Shown here in pieces: positions 3,444 to 51,059 of a stretch of DNA of 51,059 nucleotides (the first letter of the stretch is position 1; the number at the start of each line of letters is the position of its first letter). The position numbers and the translations under genes were made by a program. The DNA comes from a virus. Below the pieces are notes generated by a model that had not been told where the DNA came from, did not search any database, and saw only the letters and a list, made by a program, of their open reading frames with translations. The stretch lies in IMG/VR virus record IMGVR_UViG_3300028578_000001; one strand, written 5' to 3'.

Positions 3444-4067
3444 TTAGGCGGCTTGCTTTTCTGTGATTTCGACGAGGAAGTGTTCGCGGACGGCGGGGCT
3501 CGCCTCACGCCATGCTTTGCGGAGGTTTGCGAGCTGCTTCCCGGCCGGCGAAGGAGCGTGTTGGCGGCGCTTGCCGGTCACACGGCGGACGGCGGCCTTT
3601 GTGGGCTCCTCGCCGGCTTCAATCAGCGTGTTGAGGGTTCGCCGGACGACGCCTGGATCAGCTTCCTCGGCGTCCCTGATTTGGCGGGCCTCGTGGATTT
3701 CCTTGCGTGGGATGCCGATGTCGGCAGCGGTGGGCTTAGAATTCCCATTCGGAACGTTAGGGAGATTGTCGCCAATGCGGGCAACCTCACCACGCTCCTG
3801 CGCCGCGTCGTACTCATCGGCCAGCCGCCGCTTCGCCATCGCCTCGATTTCCAGTGCGTCAGCCTGGGCGCGGTGCGCCTTCGCAATCAGCTCGTCATGC
3901 GCCCCCTTCGCCTTGGCGAGGCGAGCCGCCTTCTTCGCGGCGTCATACGCCACCGAAGCCTTGTCGCGCGCCTCCAGCACTTCGGCGGCGGATGTGGCGC
4001 TCGCGAGTTGCGAGGCCGCCTGCCGAACGAGGCTGGGGAGGGACTGAGAGGAGATGGCCGGAAGCAT
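3444..4067 (-). CDS. Hypothetical coiled-coil protein coupled to the ParB-like gene
   Basis: ORF track; TGATG overlap with upstream stop; Ala/Lys/Glu-rich helical sequence. Confidence 0.6.
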   Translation of the reverse strand: MLPAISSQSLPSLVRQAASQLASATSAAEVLEARDKASVAYDAAKKAARLAKAKGAHDELIAKAHRAQADALEIEAMAKRRLADEYDAAQERGEVARIGDNLPNVPNGNSKPTAADIGIPRKEIHEARQIRDAEEADPGVVRRTLNTLIEAGEEPTKAAVRRVTGKRRQHAPSPAGKQLANLRKAWREASPAVREHFLVEITEKQAA

Positions 4068-6435: not shown

Positions 6436-7227
6436 ATGAGCCGCGTCGAACAGATTGGCTCGGCAACGCTGTACCTCGGCGACTGCAGGGACATTCTCCC
6501 GTCCTTGGCACCAGTCGATGCCGCCTTCACTTCGCCCCCTTACAACCTCGGCGAGCGTCCTTGGCCCCACTTCGGCAACTGGAAACCCGGCCAGAAGTCG
6601 GGCGGACAAGGCAAGTGGAAAGGAGGCGCGGAGTCCGGCTTTGGAGCTTACTACGGCACTCACGCGGACGCAATGCCATGGCCTGAGTACGTCGCGTGGC
6701 AGCAAGCTATTCTCGCCGAGCTGTGGCGCCTGACCGCGCCCTCTGGTGTCATCTTCTACAACCACAAGCCGCGCGTGATCGGCCCGCGACTGTGGCAGCC
6801 TATCGAGCTCCTGCCGGCGGACGTGCTGCATCGACAAACCATCATCTGGGCGCGTCCGGGCGGACAGAACTTCAACCCCACAGCCTTCGTCCCGACGCAC
6901 GAATGGTTGATGATGCTCGCCCATCCCGACTTCCGCCTGAAGTCGCGCGGGGCATCCGGAGAGGGCGACGTCTGGCAGATAACGCCCGACGTCAATCCGC
7001 ACCCTGCGCCGTTTCCAGTCGAGCTTCCGCACCGCGCCCTGGCCGCCACTAACACGCAGACAGTCCTCGACCCGTTCATGGGCAGCGGAACAACCGGCGT
7101 GGCCTGCCATCTGCTCCGGCGCCGCTTCATCGGGATCGAGCTTGATGCCGCCCATTTCGACACGGCTTGCCGTCGGATCGAGGATGCTCAGCGCCAAGGC
7201 TCCCTGTTCGACGCGGAGGCGGCCTAG
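6436..7227 (+). CDS. DNA methyltransferase, beta-class, SPPY motif (possibly N4-C or N6-A)
   Basis: TSPPYNLG near N-terminus, DPFMGSGTTGVA..IGIELD near C-terminus. Confidence 0.85.
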   Translation: MSRVEQIGSATLYLGDCRDILPSLAPVDAAFTSPPYNLGERPWPHFGNWKPGQKSGGQGKWKGGAESGFGAYYGTHADAMPWPEYVAWQQAILAELWRLTAPSGVIFYNHKPRVIGPRLWQPIELLPADVLHRQTIIWARPGGQNFNPTAFVPTHEWLMMLAHPDFRLKSRGASGEGDVWQITPDVNPHPAPFPVELPHRALAATNTQTVLDPFMGSGTTGVACHLLRRRFIGIELDAAHFDTACRRIEDAQRQGSLFDAEAA

Positions 7228-8570: not shown

Positions 8571-9257
8571 ATGAGCCGCGTCGAGACGATAGGCGCCGCA
8601 ACGCTGTATCTCGGCGACTGCCGCGAGATTTTGCCGACGCTGGGCAAGGTCGATGCCGTCGTGACCGACCCGCCGTATGGGATCGCCAATACTGCTGGCG
8701 GCCCCGAGAGCAGGGCGCGCGAAAAGGGGGCTTACGGCGGTTCTTTTGATGACACGCAAGAATACGTGGCGACGGTCTGCAGGGATGTCATCGATAGATG
8801 CATCGACACAGTGGGCAGGGTCGCGCTTACGCCTGGTCGCACAAATATATGGCATTATCCGCCTGCCAATGACGTTGGTTGTTTCTACCAGCCCGCAGCA
8901 ACCGGCTGTTCTTTCTGGGGGCGTCCAACATGGCAGCCAATTTTGTTCTACGGGACAGCGCCGAACAATGGCGAGCAACTGCGGCCTCTCCACCATGTGC
9001 TGACGGAAGCAGCGGAGCCGAACGGGCATCCATGTCCCAAGCCGCTCAAGGCATGGAAGTGGCTGCTCAATAAGTCGTCGCGGGTAGGCGAAATCATTCT
9101 CGATCCCTTCATGGGCTCCGGCACCACCGGGGTCGCCGCTGTTCAGATGCAGCGAGACTTCATCGGGATTGAGTGTGAGCCTTCCTACTTCGACATCGCC
9201 TGCAAGCGCATTGAGGACGCTCAACGGCAAGGTTCCCTCTTCACGGAGGCCGCATGA
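8571..9257 (+). CDS. DNA methyltransferase, beta-class, DPPY motif (N6-adenine type)
   Basis: TDPPYGI and DPFMGSGTTGVA..IGIECE; both ends paralogous to 6436..7227. Confidence 0.85.
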   Translation: MSRVETIGAATLYLGDCREILPTLGKVDAVVTDPPYGIANTAGGPESRAREKGAYGGSFDDTQEYVATVCRDVIDRCIDTVGRVALTPGRTNIWHYPPANDVGCFYQPAATGCSFWGRPTWQPILFYGTAPNNGEQLRPLHHVLTEAAEPNGHPCPKPLKAWKWLLNKSSRVGEIILDPFMGSGTTGVAAVQMQRDFIGIECEPSYFDIACKRIEDAQRQGSLFTEAA

Positions 9258-18196: not shown

Positions 18197-18267
18197 AGAA
18201 AGGTAGATCAGCACGGTAGATCGCTGCCACGAGGCGGAGGCCGCCGGTTCAAATCCGGCTCTTTCCC
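18197..18267 (+). ncRNA. tRNA-like element (non-canonical anticodon/variable region)
   Basis: In a 137-nt gap: T arm GCCGG-TTCAAAT-CCGGC, D arm GATC-AGCACGGTA-GATC, 6/7 acceptor pairs; anticodon arm imperfect. Confidence 0.3.
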
Positions 18268-31250: not shown

Positions 31251-33718
31251 GCAAGACGCTCGGCAGCATTGCCTTGGTGGCAGCAGCGGTGGCTGTGAAC
31301 GTCATCCCCGGCGCGGGTCAGTTCATCTCGGCTAGCTTGGTGGCGATTGGCCTGTCGAAAGCAGCCGCGCTTGCGATCACGACGGCCATCGCATCGACGG
31401 CGACCGTTGCCGGTTTGGCTTCGGCGGCAAGCCTGTTGGGCCTTGGTCCTGGCGGGATCAAGCCAGAGACGACTCAAGCTTCAATCAAGACATCGCGCCC
31501 GCCCCGTGTTTCCGGGACCGGCAAATCTCGACTTTGGGGAGCTTTTGCCCTCTATGAGACCGCCAGCGACGGGACGGCGGTCGATCTCTACGCCGTGCAT
31601 GATGGTGTGATCACAGGCACCCCAACCTTCTATCTCGCCGACGAAGAAGTGACCCTGACCGGCAACATCGTCGATGAAGGAGACGACGGGCGCTATCGCG
31701 ACGGCGCGATCAGCATTTACTGGACCGACGGAACCACGCCTGGGAGCGGCATTCCGGAGATCAATGCTCTGATCCCCGAATGGGACGGTCGCGGCGATGG
31801 TGTCGTGCTGATGGCACTCACCGCCCTATCGGTGAAGGTGAAGCGGTTTCAGGAGACCTATCCGCAAGCTGCGGTGCCAGAGCTTTCAATGGTGGCGGAA
31901 TGGGGCCTCTACCCAGACCCGTCTGCGGTTGACCCGACCGATGAGGCCGGATGGACATGGACCGAAAACCCGGTCCGTCACCTTCTCTGGTATAAGCTGA
32001 TTCATGAAGGAGTAGACTACGCAACGAAGATCGCGCCTGTAATCGACAGCTGGATCGCGGCGGCTTACGATTGCGACGCCGCGACGGCCCTGAAGGCCGG
32101 TGGGACCGAGGCGCGCTACCGAAGCTGTGTCGCGTTCAAGCACACCGACCAGCATAAGGACGTGGTCGGCGCCTTTCTGGCGACGTTCGATGGGTGGATA
32201 TCGCCGCGACAAGACGGGGCGTTGAGCCTTTACTCCGGCCGCTTTTACGAGCCGACCGTCAGCATCGGCTCAGATGAGATCGTCTCCTATACCTGGGATG
32301 GGGTCGGCATCGACGATGACGCGGCGGTGAATGAGATCATCGTCAGCTACGTCTCTGCCGAGCACGATTACAATTCACCCGAAGGAGAGGCATGGCGGGA
32401 CGAAGACGACATTTCTGACCGAGGTCAGGAGCTGTCGCAGCCGCTTGACGTTCAGGTTCCCTCCTTCCCCCAGGCCCGCCGACTGGCGAAGCGCAAGATG
32501 GCGCGGATCATGGCGCCTTCAAGAGGCACAATCACGACGAACGTGGCGGGGCGAGCGGTGCGTGGCGAGCGCTATATCGACCTGCATATCGAGGAGGCAG
32601 GGACTGTTTTCTATTCGGGCCCGGCCGAGATTACCGTGCTGACCCGCAACATCGCTACCGGCGGGGTGACTTTCGCCTGGGTTGCCGCCGATCCCGATAT
32701 AGACGACTGGAACCCGGCGACAGAAGAGGGCGAGCCCGCCGCGCTCGGGGAAAGGGTGGCGGCCGCCACCCTCACCGCCCCCACGATCACTGCCGTCGTC
32801 GCCATTGAAGGACCGCGGTTGCAGCTCACCGTGTCCGGCCCCGATCGGGAGGATCTGACATGGTTCGGCCACACCCGCGTTTCTGGCGCGACAATATGGG
32901 GCACCGACCTTGAATATACCGAAGTCGCGAGTGGGACGACGGTTACGCTGGTGACCGATATCATCCCACCCGACGCCACTGTCGAGGTCCAGGTTGCCTA
33001 TCAAGTCGGCGATGGACGTATTTCGGCATGGTCGACCACCGCGTCCGGGAACAGCAGCCTTGCCCCCTATTACATGGCTTCGGGAACGGCGGTTTCGGGG
33101 AGCGGAGATGTCTCCCCCGCGCTTCCTGCCGGTCTCTCGGCGGACGATATCCTGATTCTCCTTGTGGAAACCGCGAACCAACCGGTTGCGGCACCTGCCG
33201 GTTATTCGCAAGTCACCAATAGTCCTCAGGGCGTCGGCGTGGCTGGTGCGGCTACAGCGACGGCGCTTCAGATGTTCTGGAAGCGGGCAACGGGTTCCGA
33301 GTCCGCGCCAACCGTGACGGGCACGACGGATCACAAGGTGGCGAGGCTGCTGGCGATCAGGAACTGCATCGCAGCCGGCGATCCTTATGAGGCATCGGTA
33401 GGAGACACGCTTGCCACCGCTTCGGCGACCGTCACCGTTCCAGGACTGACGACGCTGGGGGCGCGCCGGCTTGTCCTCGCCGCCTCGAGCCGCGCCAATG
33501 ACGACGCCTCGCAGGCGGCCTTCTCCAATTGGCTGAACGGATCGTTGTCGAGCGTGACCCGGCGGGCCGAAGGTGGAACCACTACTGGAAACGGCGGCGG
33601 CTTCGGGACGGCAACCGGTGTGAAGGATGTTGCCGGTGCGACGGGTGTCACGACGGCGACCATCAGCGCTTCCGCAGAGCAGGCCCGCATCGCGATAGCG
33701 CTGAAGCCTGCGGCCTGA
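31247..33718 (+). CDS. Tail tip / host-specificity protein
   Basis: 823 aa; GTGA overlap; position after the tail hub genes. Confidence 0.6.
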   Translation: MSKTLGSIALVAAAVAVNVIPGAGQFISASLVAIGLSKAAALAITTAIASTATVAGLASAASLLGLGPGGIKPETTQASIKTSRPPRVSGTGKSRLWGAFALYETASDGTAVDLYAVHDGVITGTPTFYLADEEVTLTGNIVDEGDDGRYRDGAISIYWTDGTTPGSGIPEINALIPEWDGRGDGVVLMALTALSVKVKRFQETYPQAAVPELSMVAEWGLYPDPSAVDPTDEAGWTWTENPVRHLLWYKLIHEGVDYATKIAPVIDSWIAAAYDCDAATALKAGGTEARYRSCVAFKHTDQHKDVVGAFLATFDGWISPRQDGALSLYSGRFYEPTVSIGSDEIVSYTWDGVGIDDDAAVNEIIVSYVSAEHDYNSPEGEAWRDEDDISDRGQELSQPLDVQVPSFPQARRLAKRKMARIMAPSRGTITTNVAGRAVRGERYIDLHIEEAGTVFYSGPAEITVLTRNIATGGVTFAWVAADPDIDDWNPATEEGEPAALGERVAAATLTAPTITAVVAIEGPRLQLTVSGPDREDLTWFGHTRVSGATIWGTDLEYTEVASGTTVTLVTDIIPPDATVEVQVAYQVGDGRISAWSTTASGNSSLAPYYMASGTAVSGSGDVSPALPAGLSADDILILLVETANQPVAAPAGYSQVTNSPQGVGVAGAATATALQMFWKRATGSESAPTVTGTTDHKVARLLAIRNCIAAGDPYEASVGDTLATASATVTVPGLTTLGARRLVLAASSRANDDASQAAFSNWLNGSLSSVTRRAEGGTTTGNGGGFGTATGVKDVAGATGVTTATISASAEQARIAIALKPAA

Positions 33719-39035: not shown

Positions 39036-39116
39036 GGTTGTTCCCTTCAGTCCGAGCGCTGGCGACTAAGCCAGAAAACGCCGAGACGTACAAGCACCGC
39101 CGCTGATCTAGAGCGC

Positions 39117-39200
39117 CGCGAGAGGATCGAAGCCCGGAGGGCGAAGACGCCGTAGGCGGCTGAGTTCACGAGAGCCGTGCCCCGTAGGGGCCTCGCCCAG
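39117..39200 (+). repeat. GC-rich two-hairpin repeat, copy 3
   Basis: CGCGAGAGGATCGAAGCC..CGCC-GTA-GGCG..CGAGAGCC..GCCCC-GTA-GGGGC..CGCCCAG. Confidence 0.7.
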
Positions 39201-39554
39201 ATGCCTTCCGGCCTCACGCTATACCCCGGACCTTCGAAGCCCTCCTTGCCGCTGTACGGGGCTGTGGGAGGCTCTGAGGGGCAAATGAAGCGATGACCGG
39301 AGAGTTAGGTTGCGGGCCGGGTTCGACACCGGCTCAGATCGGCTTGCAAGGCTCCTGCCCAGGGGCAGGCGATCTGCGCAACCCCGCCAACCGGCCTAGC
39401 CGCAAGCGGCTTCAGCACTACGGACGGGCAATGCTCGCTTCCATCAGCGACGCCGCAACCATGCCTCTACGCTACCATGATAAGGGCTCTGGAACAAGAG
39501 TCTGGGCGCATCCCTTCGGGACCGCGTGCTAGTTCGCTTCGCTCACCGGAGCCG

Positions 39555-40155
39555 CTATGCGTCTCCGCCTTCGGTGACGCCCGCTTGCGCGGCGCGGACG
39601 GCAAGGACCGCGCGATATTCCTCGCCGGTCAGGCTGCCCTTCTCGCCGTTGCAGCGGCGATGCGCGCCGACTAGGTTTCCGATCCGGTTGGACCCGCCGC
39701 GACACTCACTTCGGAACATCGTGGTCGATGCTGAAGCTCAGCGGGTCGTCGGGCGAGCGCAGCATCGGCTTTCCGCAGTAGACGCAGCGTCCGCCACAGT
39801 TCTCCCAGACCTTCTCCGCCGCGCTTAGGACGCGCTCTACGACCTTAACAGGCGGCAGGGGTGCGGCGGGCATCGGGATGTAGACAATCACCTTCCCGGC
39901 ACGACGGTGGGGGCGTAGGCGGTCCTTGCGAGCGGCGCTGTCGGACAGAACCTGGTTGCGCGCGATCACCTCGCGCACCACGGCATGAGCGCGTTCGTAC
40001 AGTTCTCGCTCAGCCTCTCGGCGGCGCTTCTTCGCGAGCTTGACGGCGTGCAGCGCAGCGTTCGCTGTGCCACCGTGGACGCCAGTTAGAGGGGTGTCAT
40101 CGCCCTTCCAGCGATGCGCGCGACTTGCCATGATGTTCACCGTTTCGAGGGTCAA
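39555..40155 (-). pseudogene. HNH endonuclease interrupted by a +1 frameshift at about 39706
   Basis: Frame A ends ..CVYCGK..SIDHDVPK-TGA; +1 frame continues SECRGGSNRIGNLVGAHRRCNGEKG.. to TAG 39555. Confidence 0.6.
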
Positions 40156-40261
40156 GAGTTTCGGGGCGGGCGGGGCCTAAGCCCTGCCACGCTTTCGCTC
40201 TTGTCCTTGGTGAACGGCGATCGTGCATGGGAGATTCCGTAGCACAGGCGCGACGCCCTTT

Positions 40262-40426
40262 CTAGGGGTGCGCCCGCGCGCCTACGATCCGTGCGATACG
40301 CCGCACGTCCTCGATGCCGACTTCAACCTTCGTGCGCCCGTTCGCTTCCATCATGGCCAAGACGCCACCCCAGGCCGCCGCCCACTGCCGATCGCTAGTC
40401 GGTCGCCGGAACTGAATCACTTCCAT
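40262..40426 (-). CDS. Small protein (54 aa), not in ORF track
   Basis: AAGGAAGGAG SD 5 nt upstream of ATG 40426. Confidence 0.45.
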   Translation of the reverse strand: MEVIQFRRPTSDRQWAAAWGGVLAMMEANGRTKVEVGIEDVRRIARIVGARAHP

Positions 40427-40441
40427 AAATTCTCCTTCCTT

Positions 40442-40533
40442 GCGAAAGCCGATTGAAGCCCGTCAGGGGCAAGACCGCGTAGCGGGCTTGATCGCGAAGC
40501 GACGAAAGCGCGGTGCGCGAAGCGCATTCGCCC
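40442..40533 (+). repeat. GC-rich two-hairpin repeat, copy 4
   Basis: Closest to copy 6; stem 1 is CAAG..CTTG instead of CGAG..CTCG. Confidence 0.7.
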
Positions 40534-40574
40534 TGACTATTTCCATAGCATTCCCCTCTCGATTCTGCCATATA

Positions 40575-40813
40575 GGTGAGGTCGCTAGGCGCAACGGACG
40601 AGGCTTAGGCCCCGAGTGCTTCGCAGCCGACGTGGAAACGCTCGGAGCGGTGCTGCCCTGAAAAGGGCCAACAGGGATGGGTAGTGAGCGGTTGACCAGC
40701 CTAGCGACATGAGGCTGCGGATGCTCTTGGCATAACACCAGCGCCGATAGCTTAAAGCAGGCGGTGGACCCTCCCCGTAAGGATGGGTGCGAGAGTCACC
40801 CGCAGCCTCACCC
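40575..40813 (+). ncRNA. Candidate structured RNA (unknown class)
   Basis: Two perfect 10-bp helices (40581-90/40699-708; 40711-20/40800-09) enclosing GGAA, GAAA and GUAA tetraloop hairpins; no credible ORF. Confidence 0.35.
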
Positions 40814-40831
40814 TCCTTTCCTGCCAAGCCC

Positions 40832-41128
40832 CTACTGATCAGGCTGCATCCACAGCCACTCTTGGTCATTCCAGACGCGGCCCGAAGGCGTGACGGTTTC
40901 CAGTTCGGTGCGGACGTCCTGTGCTTGGACTCGCCACAGAAAGGCGATCCCGCGCTCTTCAGCCAGGATCATGAAGCAAGTCGCGCAGACCATGTCGCTG
41001 AACAGAGGTTCACCGTTGATCGAGCCGCCGCGCATGACCGCGTTCCAGAGCGGCGAGGGCGCGGACCATGCCGGATTATCGCCGCCGCAGCGCTGACATT
41101 GTTCGGCCGGGTTCCGGGCTGAGGGCAT
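40832..41128 (-). CDS. Hypothetical Cys-containing protein (98 aa)
   Basis: ATG 41128 in TAATG overlap; ORF 40832..41431 trimmed. Confidence 0.5.
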   Translation of the reverse strand: MPSARNPAEQCQRCGGDNPAWSAPSPLWNAVMRGGSINGEPLFSDMVCATCFMILAEERGIAFLWRVQAQDVRTELETVTPSGRVWNDQEWLWMQPDQ

Positions 41129-41922: not shown

Positions 41923-41967
41923 TTTACACCGAGAGGGTCGGCGGTTCGAGCCCGTCACCGCCCACCA
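41923..41967 (+). other. attP core = 3' half of a tRNA-Val(UAC)-like gene
   Basis: TTTACAC-CGAGA-GGGTC-GGCGG-TTCGAGC-CCGTC-ACCGCCC-A-CCA; no matching 5' half upstream; overlaps the integrase 3' end. Confidence 0.7.
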
Positions 41968-43192
41968 CCATTTCCCGTAGAATATCGCCGTTTAGCACCA
42001 CCGTCAAGTTTTGGCCGCGCTTGGGGATGGACAGCGAATGGACAGCAAGCCATTCCCGCGCTGCGGCGCAATAGTCCCTCCAAACGGTGGACAGCGCCTT
42101 GGAAACATTGAGCAAATAGTCGGGATCATATTTGGCGTAGACCCGAGTCGTTCGCTTCAGCACAAGGTGTCCCATCGCCGTTTCCAGCTCCTCGTTCGGG
42201 ACGCGCATTTTGCGGAGCCGCGTGGCGATAGTGTGCCGGATCGTCTTTGGCACCGCCAGCGCCGGCAGATCGAGATTGGTCCGCATCGTCCGCCACCAGC
42301 GCTTGCGCGACAGGACCGGCTTGTGGGGGTGAGCCGCCCACGCATCGAGCCAGGGGGCGAACTCCGGTATCACCGGCACGACAGGGTTGTGCTTCTTTGT
42401 CCGCGGCCATTTCGGCGGGTGAAGGTCGAGCAGGCCGTCGGCCGGGCGATACTGGCGGCCAGGGTCCATCGCTAGGCCCGCCTCGGGACGAACGAGCGCG
42501 CCGATCATCAGCAAGATCCACCGCAGGGCGGCTATATCGTAGGCCGCGTAGCCGATCAGTGCCCCCATCTCTGCGCGCGTCAGCACAAGGTCCCGCGGCG
42601 GTGATCGGTACTTGCCCTTGAGCGATGGCACTTTCGGGACCCAAGGCAGGCGCGCCGTCTCGCCGACGTTGTGGTTCAGCGCTGCGCGAATGTCGTCAAG
42701 GTTGCGTTGTACGGACTCACCGACGACGCCTGGCGAACTGTGCCTGAAGTCCCGGCCGGCCCATGGCACATCGTAGCTGTGCGGTCCCATCCGCCATTTC
42801 CGGAAGCGTTCGAACAGCTGCGGGTTGAGCTGCGTGACCGTGACGTCGGTTGTGGCCTCGTCCTGCATCAGGAAGCCGATGAACTGGCGGATCGAGCTGG
42901 CGATCTGTCCGGCGGAATCGGCATCGCGCCCGTGCTCTTCCCAATAGTTGAACAGCAAGGGAATGACCGGCGCGTCCTCCGGCGCCTGTGGGCCCTTGGC
43001 CCGTACCGCCTCTTCATGGGCACGGATGACGCCCTTGGCATCGTCTAGGCTCTGCTTCCGAGTGCTGCGATAGCGGACCTGTCGAGTACCCTGCTCGTAC
43101 CAGGCGATCTGCCAGACGTCCGGCGCCTTTCCATCCCGACGCTTGTCGAGCCAGAAATCTCCGTAGACGTAGGGGCTCTCTTCTCGGCCCAT
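41924..43192 (-). CDS. int: Tyrosine integrase
   Basis: ..TIRHTIATRL..AMGHLV..RVYAKY catalytic region; C-terminus ..GGDGLEPPTLSV is the antisense translation of the tRNA fragment. Confidence 0.9.
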   Translation of the reverse strand: MGREESPYVYGDFWLDKRRDGKAPDVWQIAWYEQGTRQVRYRSTRKQSLDDAKGVIRAHEEAVRAKGPQAPEDAPVIPLLFNYWEEHGRDADSAGQIASSIRQFIGFLMQDEATTDVTVTQLNPQLFERFRKWRMGPHSYDVPWAGRDFRHSSPGVVGESVQRNLDDIRAALNHNVGETARLPWVPKVPSLKGKYRSPPRDLVLTRAEMGALIGYAAYDIAALRWILLMIGALVRPEAGLAMDPGRQYRPADGLLDLHPPKWPRTKKHNPVVPVIPEFAPWLDAWAAHPHKPVLSRKRWWRTMRTNLDLPALAVPKTIRHTIATRLRKMRVPNEELETAMGHLVLKRTTRVYAKYDPDYLLNVSKALSTVWRDYCAAAREWLAVHSLSIPKRGQNLTVVLNGDILREMVVGGDGLEPPTLSV

Positions 43193-46982: not shown

Positions 46983-48167
46983 TCAAATCTCCGCTGCGAA
47001 AGGTGGGATGTCCTCGTCGGCGAGGTCGTAGATCGGCGCGATATCCAGCCACGGCTCCACGCCGAACGCCTCCGCATAGGTGCGGAATTTGCGCTTCTGC
47101 TGGTTGATGATTTCGTCGGTGATCGTTTTGATGGTGCCGCCGCGCGGATACCAAAGGCCGCGCGTGACGGGCGCCGGCCCCTTCTGCTGAAAGACGAACA
47201 GCCACTTGTCGGGCTCGGCGTGCTTCGCCCATTGAAGCGCCCACGCCGGATCATCCAGGCCGTGCACGACAGAGGCTCCATGTTTACGGACGAGCTTCCG
47301 AACCTCCGACGCGCCCTCGAAATAGACGGACGGCTGAATGTTGTAGTGGTAGCTGGCGATCTCGTAGGCGATGGCGCGTTCGATCGATCGCTCGCGCTGG
47401 TTGCCAAAGCTTTTGAGGTCGACCATCGCGCGGATTTTGAGGTAATCGACGCGCGCCTTCATCGGCACGCCGTTGGTCGGGCAGTGCCAGAACAGCGACA
47501 CTTCGGGGTGTCCGCCGCTGAATGCCTTCGACAACTCGGGGTCGCGGTCGATCATGTAGGCGGCGATCTCGAGCCGCTGCCACTGGTCGCGTCCGATCAT
47601 CGCCTTCCCGGCATTCGCTGCGAGATGTTGATCCGTCATCACGTCCCAAATCTGGGCGGTGGGATCGACGTCGAGTAGCTGCTTGATCCTGTCCGGCTTG
47701 TTGCCGCTAGCTGGTCGCTCGCCGGCTTCCTTGAGCGCGGCGCGGATTTCGTCGTCGGTCGTCAGGGCGTCTGGATAGTCGCGCTTGTCGAGATAGACCG
47801 CGAACCTCTCTTCGAACGTCTCTCGGCCTTCCAGGATGCGGCAGTGATAGGCGTTGCCGAGCGTGCGATGATCCCTGTCCTCTTCCTCTTTGCCCGGGTT
47901 CATCCACGACCGCGCCCAGAACAGCATCGGGGAAGATGCCAGCGCCTTGATGCCGCTATTCGACAGCGCCGGGACCGCGTGATAATCGGCTTCCGGCATG
48001 TTGAAATATATCCCCGGCTCCGGAAACGGGGGCGTGTCCGGAAGCCGGGGGGGCTCCACGCGGGCTGGTTCTCCCGGTTGCTCGCGCGTGTCGCCTAGGA
48101 GCTCGCCGACGGTTGTGAACGCATCCATCGGCCGGCGAAGCTCGGGGATGGGCGGCTGGTCAGGCAT
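46983..48167 (-). CDS. RecE-like PD-(D/E)XK exonuclease (DUF3799-like)
   Basis: IYFNMPEADYHAVPALSNSGIKAL; ATG 48167 with GGGAGG upstream; directly upstream of recT. Confidence 0.6.
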   Translation of the reverse strand: MPDQPPIPELRRPMDAFTTVGELLGDTREQPGEPARVEPPRLPDTPPFPEPGIYFNMPEADYHAVPALSNSGIKALASSPMLFWARSWMNPGKEEEDRDHRTLGNAYHCRILEGRETFEERFAVYLDKRDYPDALTTDDEIRAALKEAGERPASGNKPDRIKQLLDVDPTAQIWDVMTDQHLAANAGKAMIGRDQWQRLEIAAYMIDRDPELSKAFSGGHPEVSLFWHCPTNGVPMKARVDYLKIRAMVDLKSFGNQRERSIERAIAYEIASYHYNIQPSVYFEGASEVRKLVRKHGASVVHGLDDPAWALQWAKHAEPDKWLFVFQQKGPAPVTRGLWYPRGGTIKTITDEIINQQKRKFRTYAEAFGVEPWLDIAPIYDLADEDIPPFAAEI

Positions 48168-49369: not shown

Positions 49370-50020
49370 CTAATCGACATATTCGACCTCCCGCTGAATA
49401 ATTTCGGGATGCTCAACGACCTGTTCCAGCATGTCGGCGAGACCGCCGCCACAGATGGTGAACCCTTGCCGCGCGTACTTGATGAGCCGCCGCAGGCTGG
49501 ACGTGCCATAGGACAGCTTGCCGGGGACGAGCCGCTTGTTGGCGATGTCGAACAGCGCCCATTGGCCGAACAGCAGATCGGTCCCGTCAAATCCACACTG
49601 GCAGATGGAAAAGTCGAAGCTGTCGATTACCGCATCCAGCGTTTCGAAGAACGCAACTCGAATGGCCTGCACCTTCAGTTCCGGCCCGCCGCCTTCGAAT
49701 GAGTCCTCGTCAACCGGCTTGGCCTCGGCCGCTGGCAGGCGGAAAGTGACGTTGAAATCGCTCTCATTCTGTTGCTTCGCGCCTTTGCCCTTTATCGCTT
49801 CGCAGAAGGCGTCGAACTGCGCCTGATCGCGGAAGAAGAAGTCGAAGTCACTTTCCTGCGGCAAGCGCGAGATGAGGCGGCGGACGCTTCCGCCCGCTAG
49901 CCAAGGGCCGGTGGCGGTGAGCGCCGGGAGGCGCGCAAGCGCCTTCGCGAAATCCGTGTCGTCGAACTCATTGCGGCCGTAGCGGTCCCAGAAGGCGGCC
50001 AAGGAAACGCGGGTGTTCAT
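49370..50020 (-). CDS. Minimal nucleotidyltransferase (pol-beta superfamily)
   Basis: LAGGSVRRLISRLPQESDFDFFF (GS..DxD; resembles the GGxVRD..DxD head of CCA-adding enzymes); ATG 50020 with GGAGGG upstream. Confidence 0.55.
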   Translation of the reverse strand: MNTRVSLAAFWDRYGRNEFDDTDFAKALARLPALTATGPWLAGGSVRRLISRLPQESDFDFFFRDQAQFDAFCEAIKGKGAKQQNESDFNVTFRLPAAEAKPVDEDSFEGGGPELKVQAIRVAFFETLDAVIDSFDFSICQCGFDGTDLLFGQWALFDIANKRLVPGKLSYGTSSLRRLIKYARQGFTICGGGLADMLEQVVEHPEIIQREVEYVD

Positions 50021-50626: not shown

Positions 50627-51059
50627 GCCGCCCTCCCGATCTGCCGGACAGCCTCGCCATCAAAGGCAAACAGTTGCTCAGCGTAGAGGTCGTGCACGCG
50701 CGTCGTGACGTAATCGCGATAGACGTAGGTTGGCCGCGACTTGCGCTTGATGGCATAGGTGTGCAGGGTCATCTCTCCGTTCGCTTCGTCTGTTTCGTTG
50801 ATGACGAGGAAGTCTTTGTGAAAGCAGCGGATCATGGCGGCGTTCAGCGCTTCCTGAAGCGAGGCGGGTTCGCAGTTAAGATAAAGCGCCGATGTCCGCT
50901 TGCCGTCAGAGACGCGGAAGGCCTCATAGCGCTTGGCACTGTAGCGCACGGCGTGCCTCGCCAGCCGCATGGCGCTGGCGGCTATGTCCGGGATGGCTCT
51001 AACCGCAGCGTAGAGGGCGCGATGCAGTGGATCTGGAAACGGCTCGCCGAAGCGGTCGT
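50623..51059 (-). CDS. Hypothetical protein, spans the circular junction
   Basis: ORF 50623..50970 stays open to the window end; the likely start is the ATG at nt 167 of the duplicated start region. Confidence 0.55.
   Translation of the reverse strand, partial: DRFGEPFPDPLHRALYAAVRAIPDIAASAMRLARHAVRYSAKRYEAFRVSDGKRTSALYLNCEPASLQEALNAAMIRCFHKDFLVINETDEANGEMTLHTYAIKRKSRPTYVYRDYVTTRVHDLYAEQLFAFDGEAVRQIGRAA
50933..51059. repeat. Terminal direct repeat (circular-assembly overlap)
   Basis: Identical to nt 1-127. Confidence 0.95.

Follow-up and report, generated by a model that had tools for sequence, protein, structure and literature searches.

A structured gene-free spacer in a phage contig and two repeat families that meet in it

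Does the 405-nt gap between two - strand genes of a phage contig hold one non-coding RNA, or several structured elements with separate histories? The window, that is, the whole stretch of DNA that we analyzed (51,059 nucleotides; IMG/VR virus record IMGVR_UViG_3300028578_000001), is a circularly assembled phage contig, with bases 1-127 repeated at 50933-51059, and its source assembly is the ENA metagenome ERZ27256766. A first-pass annotation had singled out about 240 nt of the gap (40575-40813; hereafter, the candidate) as one structured RNA, transcribed on its own from the + strand, opposite to the flanking genes, behind a copy of a repeat. The reading that we favor, at a probability of about 40%, is that the gap is a composite spacer made of three independent modules, with one part of the candidate, domain 2, being an RNA structure at the 3' end of a sense-strand transcript.

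Genes, folds and coding potential of the gap

In the contig's own calls, the genes from ~39.5 to 50.6 kb are all on the - strand, where they follow the order integrase, T5orf172/MUG113 protein, 64-aa gene, 98-aa gene, the gap, 54-aa gene and HNH endonuclease (Table 1). A tRNA 3' half on the + strand (T-arm GGTTCGAGCCC, acceptor strand and CCA; ~41935-41970) lies inside the 3' end of the integrase gene; it probably represents the attP core, with a tRNA gene as the integration target, and this putative attP site lies ~1.1 kb from the candidate. The HNH homolog in the phage locus L018 is a single 167-aa ORF, as opposed to the split gene of the window, where a frameshift, a pseudogene or an assembly error could account for the two frames; ~35 nt of the HNH 5' leader (window ~40196-40230) recur, as judged by eye, upstream of the HNH gene in locus L023. 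Elsewhere in the window, precomputed Pfam matches identify a Gad2 (anti-Gabija) homolog and a DUF3799 PDDEXK nuclease in the early region (49370-50020 and 46983-48167, both on the - strand), and two + strand ORFs, 6436-7227 and 8571-9257, share stretches of 76% (6436-6530 versus 8571-8665) and 71% (7066-7209 versus 9099-9242) identity, which suggests a duplicated gene pair ~2.1 kb apart.

Table 1 Features in and around the gene-free gap of the window.
Feature	Coordinates	Strand	Description
Second X-family unit ("X")	39308-39460	+	GGTTGCGG ... CCGCAACC around a 137-nt interior; in the ORF-free gap 39036-39555; convergent with domain 2
HNH endonuclease gene	39555-40155	-	Split into frames 39706-40155 and 39555-39719, which overlap; the X units lie on either side
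54-aa gene	40262-40426	-	Flank downstream of the gap; orphan; start codon 16-17 nt from the ~95-nt element
~95-nt element (repeat copy 4)	40442-40537	+	Closing helix P1 (GCGAA...TTCGC), four hairpins capped by C-GNA-G, CC(N) tail
Outer complement GGTGAGG/CCTCACC	40575-40812		Closes the whole stretch in the MFE structure
Domain 1	40581-40708	+	10-bp perfect helix around 108 nt; GGAA and GAAA hairpins (40631-40, 40655-68)
Domain 2, X-family unit	40710-40811	-	Arms 40710-40720 and 40800-40810, 11 bp perfect; interior 73-79 nt
98-aa gene	40832-41128	-	Flank upstream of the gap; no family match; TAG stop at 40832-34
Integrase gene	41924-43192	-	Start of the local - strand gene order

Both long helices of the first-pass annotation are present and perfect. 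Helix 1 pairs GTCGCTAGGC (40581-90) with GCCTAGCGAC (40699-708), and helix 2 pairs GAGGCTGCGG (40711-20) with CCGCAGCCTC (40800-09) and is in fact 11 bp long (40710-20 with 40800-10); the stretches that they close are referred to here as domain 1 and domain 2. The outer GGT/ACC closure likewise exists and extends to 7 nt, with GGTGAGG (40575-81) complementary to CCTCACC (40806-12), so that both ends of the candidate start with GGTGAGG, each read inward on its own strand. The + strand hairpins CGT-GGAA-ACG (40631-40), GCCCT-GAAA-AGGGC (40655-68) and CC-GTAA-GG (40775-82) were recovered as well; the GGAA and GAAA tetraloops are firm, and GUAA is weaker. That the gap is non-coding as well as structured, as had been claimed, is borne out by its ORFs too: the contig's own gene calls are empty over 40427-40831, the six mechanical ORFs over the gap have no matches in Pfam or PHROGs, and the longest of them, a spurious ORF of 94 aa, has no match in a collection of 5.8 billion proteins.

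Either 10-bp helix alone would be expected by chance in this genome, which contains 19 perfect inverted repeats with arms of 10 bp or more and loops of up to 150 nt, compared to 13.1 ± 3.8 in Markov simulations. The minimum free energy (MFE) of the whole stretch has a z-score of -2.9 on the + strand and -3.6 on the - strand; the GC-corrected MFE residual for this part of the genome is ~-2.4 SD from the genome trend (by arithmetic on the fit), and the candidate is outside the 12 best 245-nt segments by fold stability, several of which are coding. Of the two domains, only domain 2 folds clearly better than its shuffles (z of -4.3 on the + strand and -3.3 on the - strand, versus -1.3 and -2.7, respectively, for domain 1). 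What is unusual is the combination of two abutting closed helices in an ORF-free gap with two firm GNRA loops on one strand. The observation is real, yet it exceeds chance modestly to moderately.

No known RNA family accounts for the candidate. In agreement with the first-pass annotation, Rfam covariance models and ARAGORN gave no match to tRNA, tmRNA, RNase P, 6S RNA or a riboswitch. At the gathering threshold, the sole Rfam 15 match in the window is a tRNA at 18197-18267, with none in the candidate; a permissive search of 40300-41000 at E up to 10 returned only Hammerhead_II (E 1.7, inside the 54-aa gene) and a frameshift-site model (E 8.7, a match that merely follows the long stem), both far below threshold. 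The related loci had no Rfam matches, and ARAGORN reported only 18197-18267 and 33233-33313 in the window and nothing in the gap. The first of these, a tRNA-like gene on the + strand, scores 40 bits against Rfam tRNA, has an anticodon that ARAGORN left unassigned (short anticodon loop) and lies between the arms of a perfect 10-bp inverted repeat, 18179-88 and 18282-91.

Independent transcription was not supported. A consensus scan of 40427-40831, limited to sigma-70-type sites as opposed to alphaproteobacterial or phage-specific promoters, predicted neither a sigma-70-like promoter nor an intrinsic terminator (a stem followed by a U-run) on either strand, and the upstream repeat is a closed structure, not a promoter consensus.

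As a whole, the 240 nt have no homolog in any collection searched. BLASTN found none among the INPHARED phages and, among PLSDB plasmids, matched the upstream ~95-nt element only; exact 18-22-mers of the candidate occur zero times in IMG/VR. By BLASTN and nhmmer, the candidate is absent from all 13 IMG/VR loci with a homolog of the 98-aa gene and from 6 loci with an HNH homolog (for the 54-aa gene, no homologous loci were found), and nhmmer detected no match to either of its parts in the 119 phage loci (1.0 Mb) with the upstream repeat. Neither the rest of the window nor 1.2 Mb of loci contain a further copy. Several possible derivations were considered and rejected: the candidate is no MITE, given that its flanks (...CCATATA/GGTGAGG and CCTCACC/CTCCTTT) contain no direct repeat that would represent a target-site duplication; an internal duplication that gave rise to domains 1 and 2 is unconvincing, with a global alignment only ~3 SD above shuffles; and diverged copies of the ~95-nt element were not detected by HMM inside 40575-40813. 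The 14-nt motif GGTGAGGCTGCGGG shows no genome-wide enrichment.

Domain 2 and the X family

Domain 2 belongs to a recurrent family of closed stems. We define this family, denoted X, by the arms GG(T/C)TGCGG ... CCGCA(A/G)CC around a variable interior of 73-137 nt; it consists of 10 units on 7 contigs that share the arms and flanking blocks. Domain 2 carries these arms (GAGGCTGCGG / CCGCAGCCTC) around a 79-nt interior, and the window contains a second unit, X itself. Scanning of the fetched loci and sequence similarity revealed further units in L082, L116 (two), L023/L024, L058 (with 20-bp perfect arms) and L127; the L082 unit has a small lysis-type gene on one side and three tRNA genes on the other.

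IMGVR_UViG_3300045253_000096 (loci L018/L019) has both arms and the 3' tail of domain 2 unchanged; there, GAGGCTGCGG ... CCGCAGCCTCACCC enclose a 91-nt interior that is otherwise unrelated to that of domain 2. Window positions 40799-40818 are 95% identical, over 20 nt, to L018 1401-1383, and this record is the single IMG/VR match to a 24-base two-arm pattern, for which the metagenome and genome collections returned only a chance match inside a Spirochaete coding region. The same record has a homolog of X (window 39308-39478), the blocks of which are 85-89% identical to L018 1763-1602.

The flanks orient the family. The 5' flank of the domain 2 type, GGGGGTGAGGCTGCGGGCCGGGTTTCTCACC, matches GGGGAAGTAGGTTGCGGGCCGGGCTTGATACC of X, and the 3' flank, CTCCACGCCGCCGCAGCC, matches CATCCACGCCGCCGCAACC; the L018 unit matches both the 5' and the 3' blocks of X, and in domain 2 of the window, the 5' block is clearly shared and the 3' block is weak. 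In MAFFT alignments with direction adjustment, domain 2 and its L018 counterpart were flipped to align with X. Together, the flank homology and the flip show that the family orientation of domain 2 is the - strand. On this strand, moreover, its helix reaches 15 bp with two G·U pairs (GTGAGGCTGCGGGTG / CATCCGCAGCCTCAT), which are A·C mismatches on the + strand.

Read in this orientation, domain 2 starts 20 nt after the TAG of the 98-aa gene. Units that start at a same-strand stop codon, or within a few nucleotides downstream of it, were also found in L082 (after a gene for a small membrane protein), L018 (X), L116 (X'), L127 and L058; the exceptions are the L023 unit, in a divergent region upstream of a gene, and X of the window, which follows only a doubtful 39-aa ORF. 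A TAG or TGA immediately precedes the arm in most X units, and in domain 2, a TGA on the - strand (40808-40810) at the start of the 5' arm is in frame with the 98-aa gene, seven codons past its TAG.

Pairing holds in 86% of the cells of the closing helix across the 10 units, as opposed to 27-51% in slid controls. At one position, five units have U-A and four have C-G; a second position is G-C in seven units, A-U in one and U-A in one. Among 500 shuffles, 6-7 reach the observed percentage of pairing and the covariation score, and 53 reach the count of changes on both sides. The covariation, perhaps 2-3 independent events among 10 units, is suggestive but thin. A hairpin inside the X 5' arm also changes on both sides (GCCGG/CCGGC, GGGTG/CACCC, GCCGC/GCGGC). 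In addition, the units contain conserved blocks of primary sequence, such as GTCCATCCACGCCGCCGCAACC, which suggest recognition by a protein, beyond a mere stem. No unit is followed by a U-tract, and therefore X units are not canonical intrinsic terminators.

X units often occur in convergent pairs. The two units of such X/X' pairs are 118 nt apart in L018 and 40 nt apart in L116, and in the window, X (39308, + strand) faces domain 2 (40811, - strand) across 1.25 kb that contain the HNH gene, the 54-aa gene, an element denoted E and domain 1. In L023/L024, an X unit is located ~130 nt from the HNH homolog.

Domain 1 has no relatives detectable by nhmmer or pattern searches. Accordingly, the single RNA of ~240 nt proposed at the outset comes apart into domains that differ in history, one without relatives and the other within a repeat family: helix 2 is kept in relatives, with some compensatory change, and helix 1 has none. 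The GGTGAGG with which domain 2 starts recurs, inverted, at the 5' end of domain 1 and, because both domains start with this heptamer on opposite strands, the candidate resembles a tight convergent X/X' pair; the putative tie of domain 1 to the X family rests on this 7-nt match only. We infer that domain 1 is a lineage-specific closed hairpin cluster, a lineage-specific addition. The assignment of the candidate to the + strand survives in part: it may fit domain 1, where the GNRA loops favor the + strand, and is not supported for domain 2, given the alignment of its relatives on the - strand, the stop-codon position and the G·U extension.

The ~95-nt element upstream of the candidate

The repeat directly upstream of the candidate, recorded as copy 4 in the first-pass annotation, is a genuine element and is more remarkable than the X family; the two represent undescribed repeat families. 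At least 11 copies are present in this phage, on both strands (the others near 297+, 2567+, 9358+, 39117+, 44471+, 45717+ (weak), 49104+, 48405-, 49364- and 50454-), and copies cluster among the Gad2/DUF3799 early genes. Copies were also found in loci L016, L017, L026 and L027. A degenerate pattern run against IMG/VR gave at least 119 loci among the matches listed, in which nhmmer identified 158 copies. In a 60-copy alignment, 93.5% of the cells of the closing helix and three hairpins are paired, compared to 73.6% in shuffles and 29-43% in slid controls, and changes on both sides occur in 172 cells versus 56 in shuffles; the fourth hairpin is visible, although its columns do not align. The loops are C-GNA-G throughout, and G·U accounts for only ~1.4% of the paired cells. 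Structural selection on the element is very strong, given this covariation. No Rfam family includes it, and literature searches by sequence and by topic found no published description.

The element also occurs in gene-free gaps of conjugative plasmids of Burkholderia, Serratia, Pseudomonas, Klebsiella and Delftia, where it lies antisense to the genes that it precedes. In the F-like plasmid of Serratia SCBI, its neighbors in the leading region are psiA, psiB, a DUF932 gene and a methylase; it is antisense to these genes, that is, on the transferred strand, ~170 nt beyond an Frpo-like hairpin. Its sequence is present at the distal end of three "Frpo*" candidates listed by Samuel et al. 2024 (Supplementary Table 2; PMC11541004). 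On a plasmid of Burkholderia cenocepacia J2315 (locus L016), a near-perfect hairpin of ~109 nt (3654-3762), ~230 nt 5' of an element copy, is possibly the Frpo-like hairpin of that leading region; in Rfam, it has spurious miRNA-precursor matches only. An sRNA study of Burkholderia J2315 contains no plasmid entries.

The fixed placement claimed for this repeat ahead of ORF starts proved only partly correct: several copies do precede a Shine-Dalgarno sequence and ATG, but by the contig's gene calls, about half lie inside called genes or run antisense to them. The element forms a closed structure that lacks conserved -35/-10 promoter hexamers. Since its 5' edge lies close to the start codon of the antisense 54-aa gene, the element does not imply rightward transcription of the candidate. 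A structured module that would recur 3' of the element in other phages was sought and rejected: closing helices are not enriched in the 3' flanks relative to the 5' flanks.

Explanations of the gap and known systems

An ncRNA of ~240 nt with its own + strand transcription, antisense to the flanking genes and with the upstream repeat as promoter or leader, appears improbable and is at best partly supported. It would make sense of the two firm tetraloops and the weaker GUAA, all on the + strand, of the + strand fold that closes the whole stretch (z -2.9), and of the adjacent ~95-nt element, which is likewise on the + strand, precedes a Shine-Dalgarno sequence and ATG at several other copies and, in the other gap, is again followed (copy D, 39117+) by a + strand unit, X. 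These points are offset by the empty consensus scan for promoter-like and terminator-like sites, the closed element without conserved -35/-10 boxes, the lack of a homolog of the whole combined with the opposite alignment of the domain 2 relatives, a - strand fold that is equally good or better overall (z -3.6), and element 3' flanks that are no richer in long closing helices than the 5' flanks in other phages. That the gap is instead a functionless spacer, leftover DNA of a mosaic junction in a phage whose GC-rich sequence readily gives rise to long inverted repeats, is also unlikely. The chance frequency of each 10-bp helix, the unexceptional fold stability for this genome and the absence of homologs of domain 1 and of the whole unit from the collections searched would all be expected of such DNA; the recurrence of the arms, tail and flanks of domain 2 in seven phage contigs, in a consistent relation to stop codons and with some compensatory change, would not, and neither would the z of -4.3 for domain 2 by itself or the very strong structural selection on the neighboring element.

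Rather doubtful, too, is action at the DNA level, with the inverted repeats serving as protein-recognition sites or as single-stranded DNA structures: X units might be cassette boundaries, repeats of invertible segments, or ssDNA hairpins as in plasmid leading regions. The arms are conserved around unrelated interiors, the helices are perfect Watson-Crick on both strands, and the convergent X/X' architecture recurs with an insert of variable size, such that X and domain 2 bracket a cassette-like 1.25 kb in the window and only 40-118 nt in related phages; the L023/L024 unit near the HNH homolog fits the same picture. The neighboring element adds to it, with its transferred-strand location on plasmids beside candidate Frpo single-strand promoters, with G·U in only ~1.4% of its paired cells and with its C-GNA-G loops, a signature of very stable DNA mini-hairpins. 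Against this, the units are flanked by no target-site duplication and have no specifically linked recombinase, there are no -35/-10 hexamers in the stems, the 14-nt motif is not enriched genome-wide, and the G·U extensions favor RNA from one strand; furthermore, this is a dsDNA tailed-phage genome, in which replication intermediates are the only known single-stranded stage.

If, as we favor, the gap is a composite spacer, the X unit would fold in the sense (- strand) transcript directly past the stop codon, and domain 2 would be the 3' untranslated end of the transcript of the 98-aa gene. The folded unit could mark or protect this RNA 3' end as an insulator, a terminator-like element or a stabilizer, and the downstream 54-aa and HNH genes would then be expressed separately. 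The 240-nt stretch alone is of modest importance, a structured phage spacer that has no relatives as a whole, and matters more through the families that it uncovered. The ~95-nt element shows covariation among the clearest and is common to temperate phages and to the first-transferred regions of plasmids with their ssDNA promoters and anti-defense genes; the X family is a small family of closed stems proximal to stop codons, often in convergent pairs.

Repeated structured elements that punctuate phage and bacterial operons include the RNase III sites of the T7 early region and the mRNA 3' stabilizers of the REP/BIME type. Like these, X units are related intergenic stems directly after stop codons, on the sense strand, that recur within and between related genomes and may keep their pairing by compensatory change. 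Unlike these, they are not single compact hairpins but stems around a long and variable interior (73-137 nt); they contain conserved sequence blocks, often come in convergent pairs, and are known from sequence alone. With intrinsic terminators, X units share GC-rich stems at the ends of genes and operons, including positions between convergent genes, but the U-tract is missing, the closing stem spans ~100 nt, and the consensus scan finds no terminator. In domain 1, the hairpin GCCCU-GAAA-AGGGC (40655-68) resembles the boxB hairpin of the lambda nut site, GCCCUGAAAAAGGGC, with the same stem and a purine loop one base shorter; the resemblance concerns a single short hairpin in a domain that has no relatives.

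The Frpo and ssi elements are ssDNA promoters of the leading regions of conjugative plasmids (Masai & Arai 1997; PMC11541004). The candidate has no similarity to the listed Frpo/ssi sequences, is on the other side of the ~95-nt element compared to the Frpo-like hairpin of the plasmid, and belongs to a tailed-phage genome rather than to a transferred single strand; as an Frpo-type promoter it was rejected, there being no -35/-10 hexamer pair in its stems on either strand. What the two settings have in common are strand-specific hairpins in gene-free gaps among genes of the anti-defense type and the ~95-nt element itself, which lies directly upstream of the candidate and also on the transferred strand of leading regions. 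A broader and speculative possibility, to which we give little weight, is that the gap strings together folded modules, each specific to one strand, of two families so far undescribed, which act as single-stranded nucleic-acid structures and belong to a toolkit shared by phages and plasmids. One family would be the ~95-nt element, a putative five-way junction that has C-GNA-G loops, is nearly free of G·U and occurs in plasmid leading regions and over 100 phage contigs; the X units would be the other. Should this be the case, the toolkit would bear on how temperate phages and plasmids handle their DNA or RNA on entry or in early expression, be it through priming, support of single-strand promoters or protection of early anti-defense operons, with the candidate as a local elaboration. 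If either family acts on ssDNA or on early transcripts, early expression of phages would be tied to the establishment of plasmids, and both would offer testable cis-elements.
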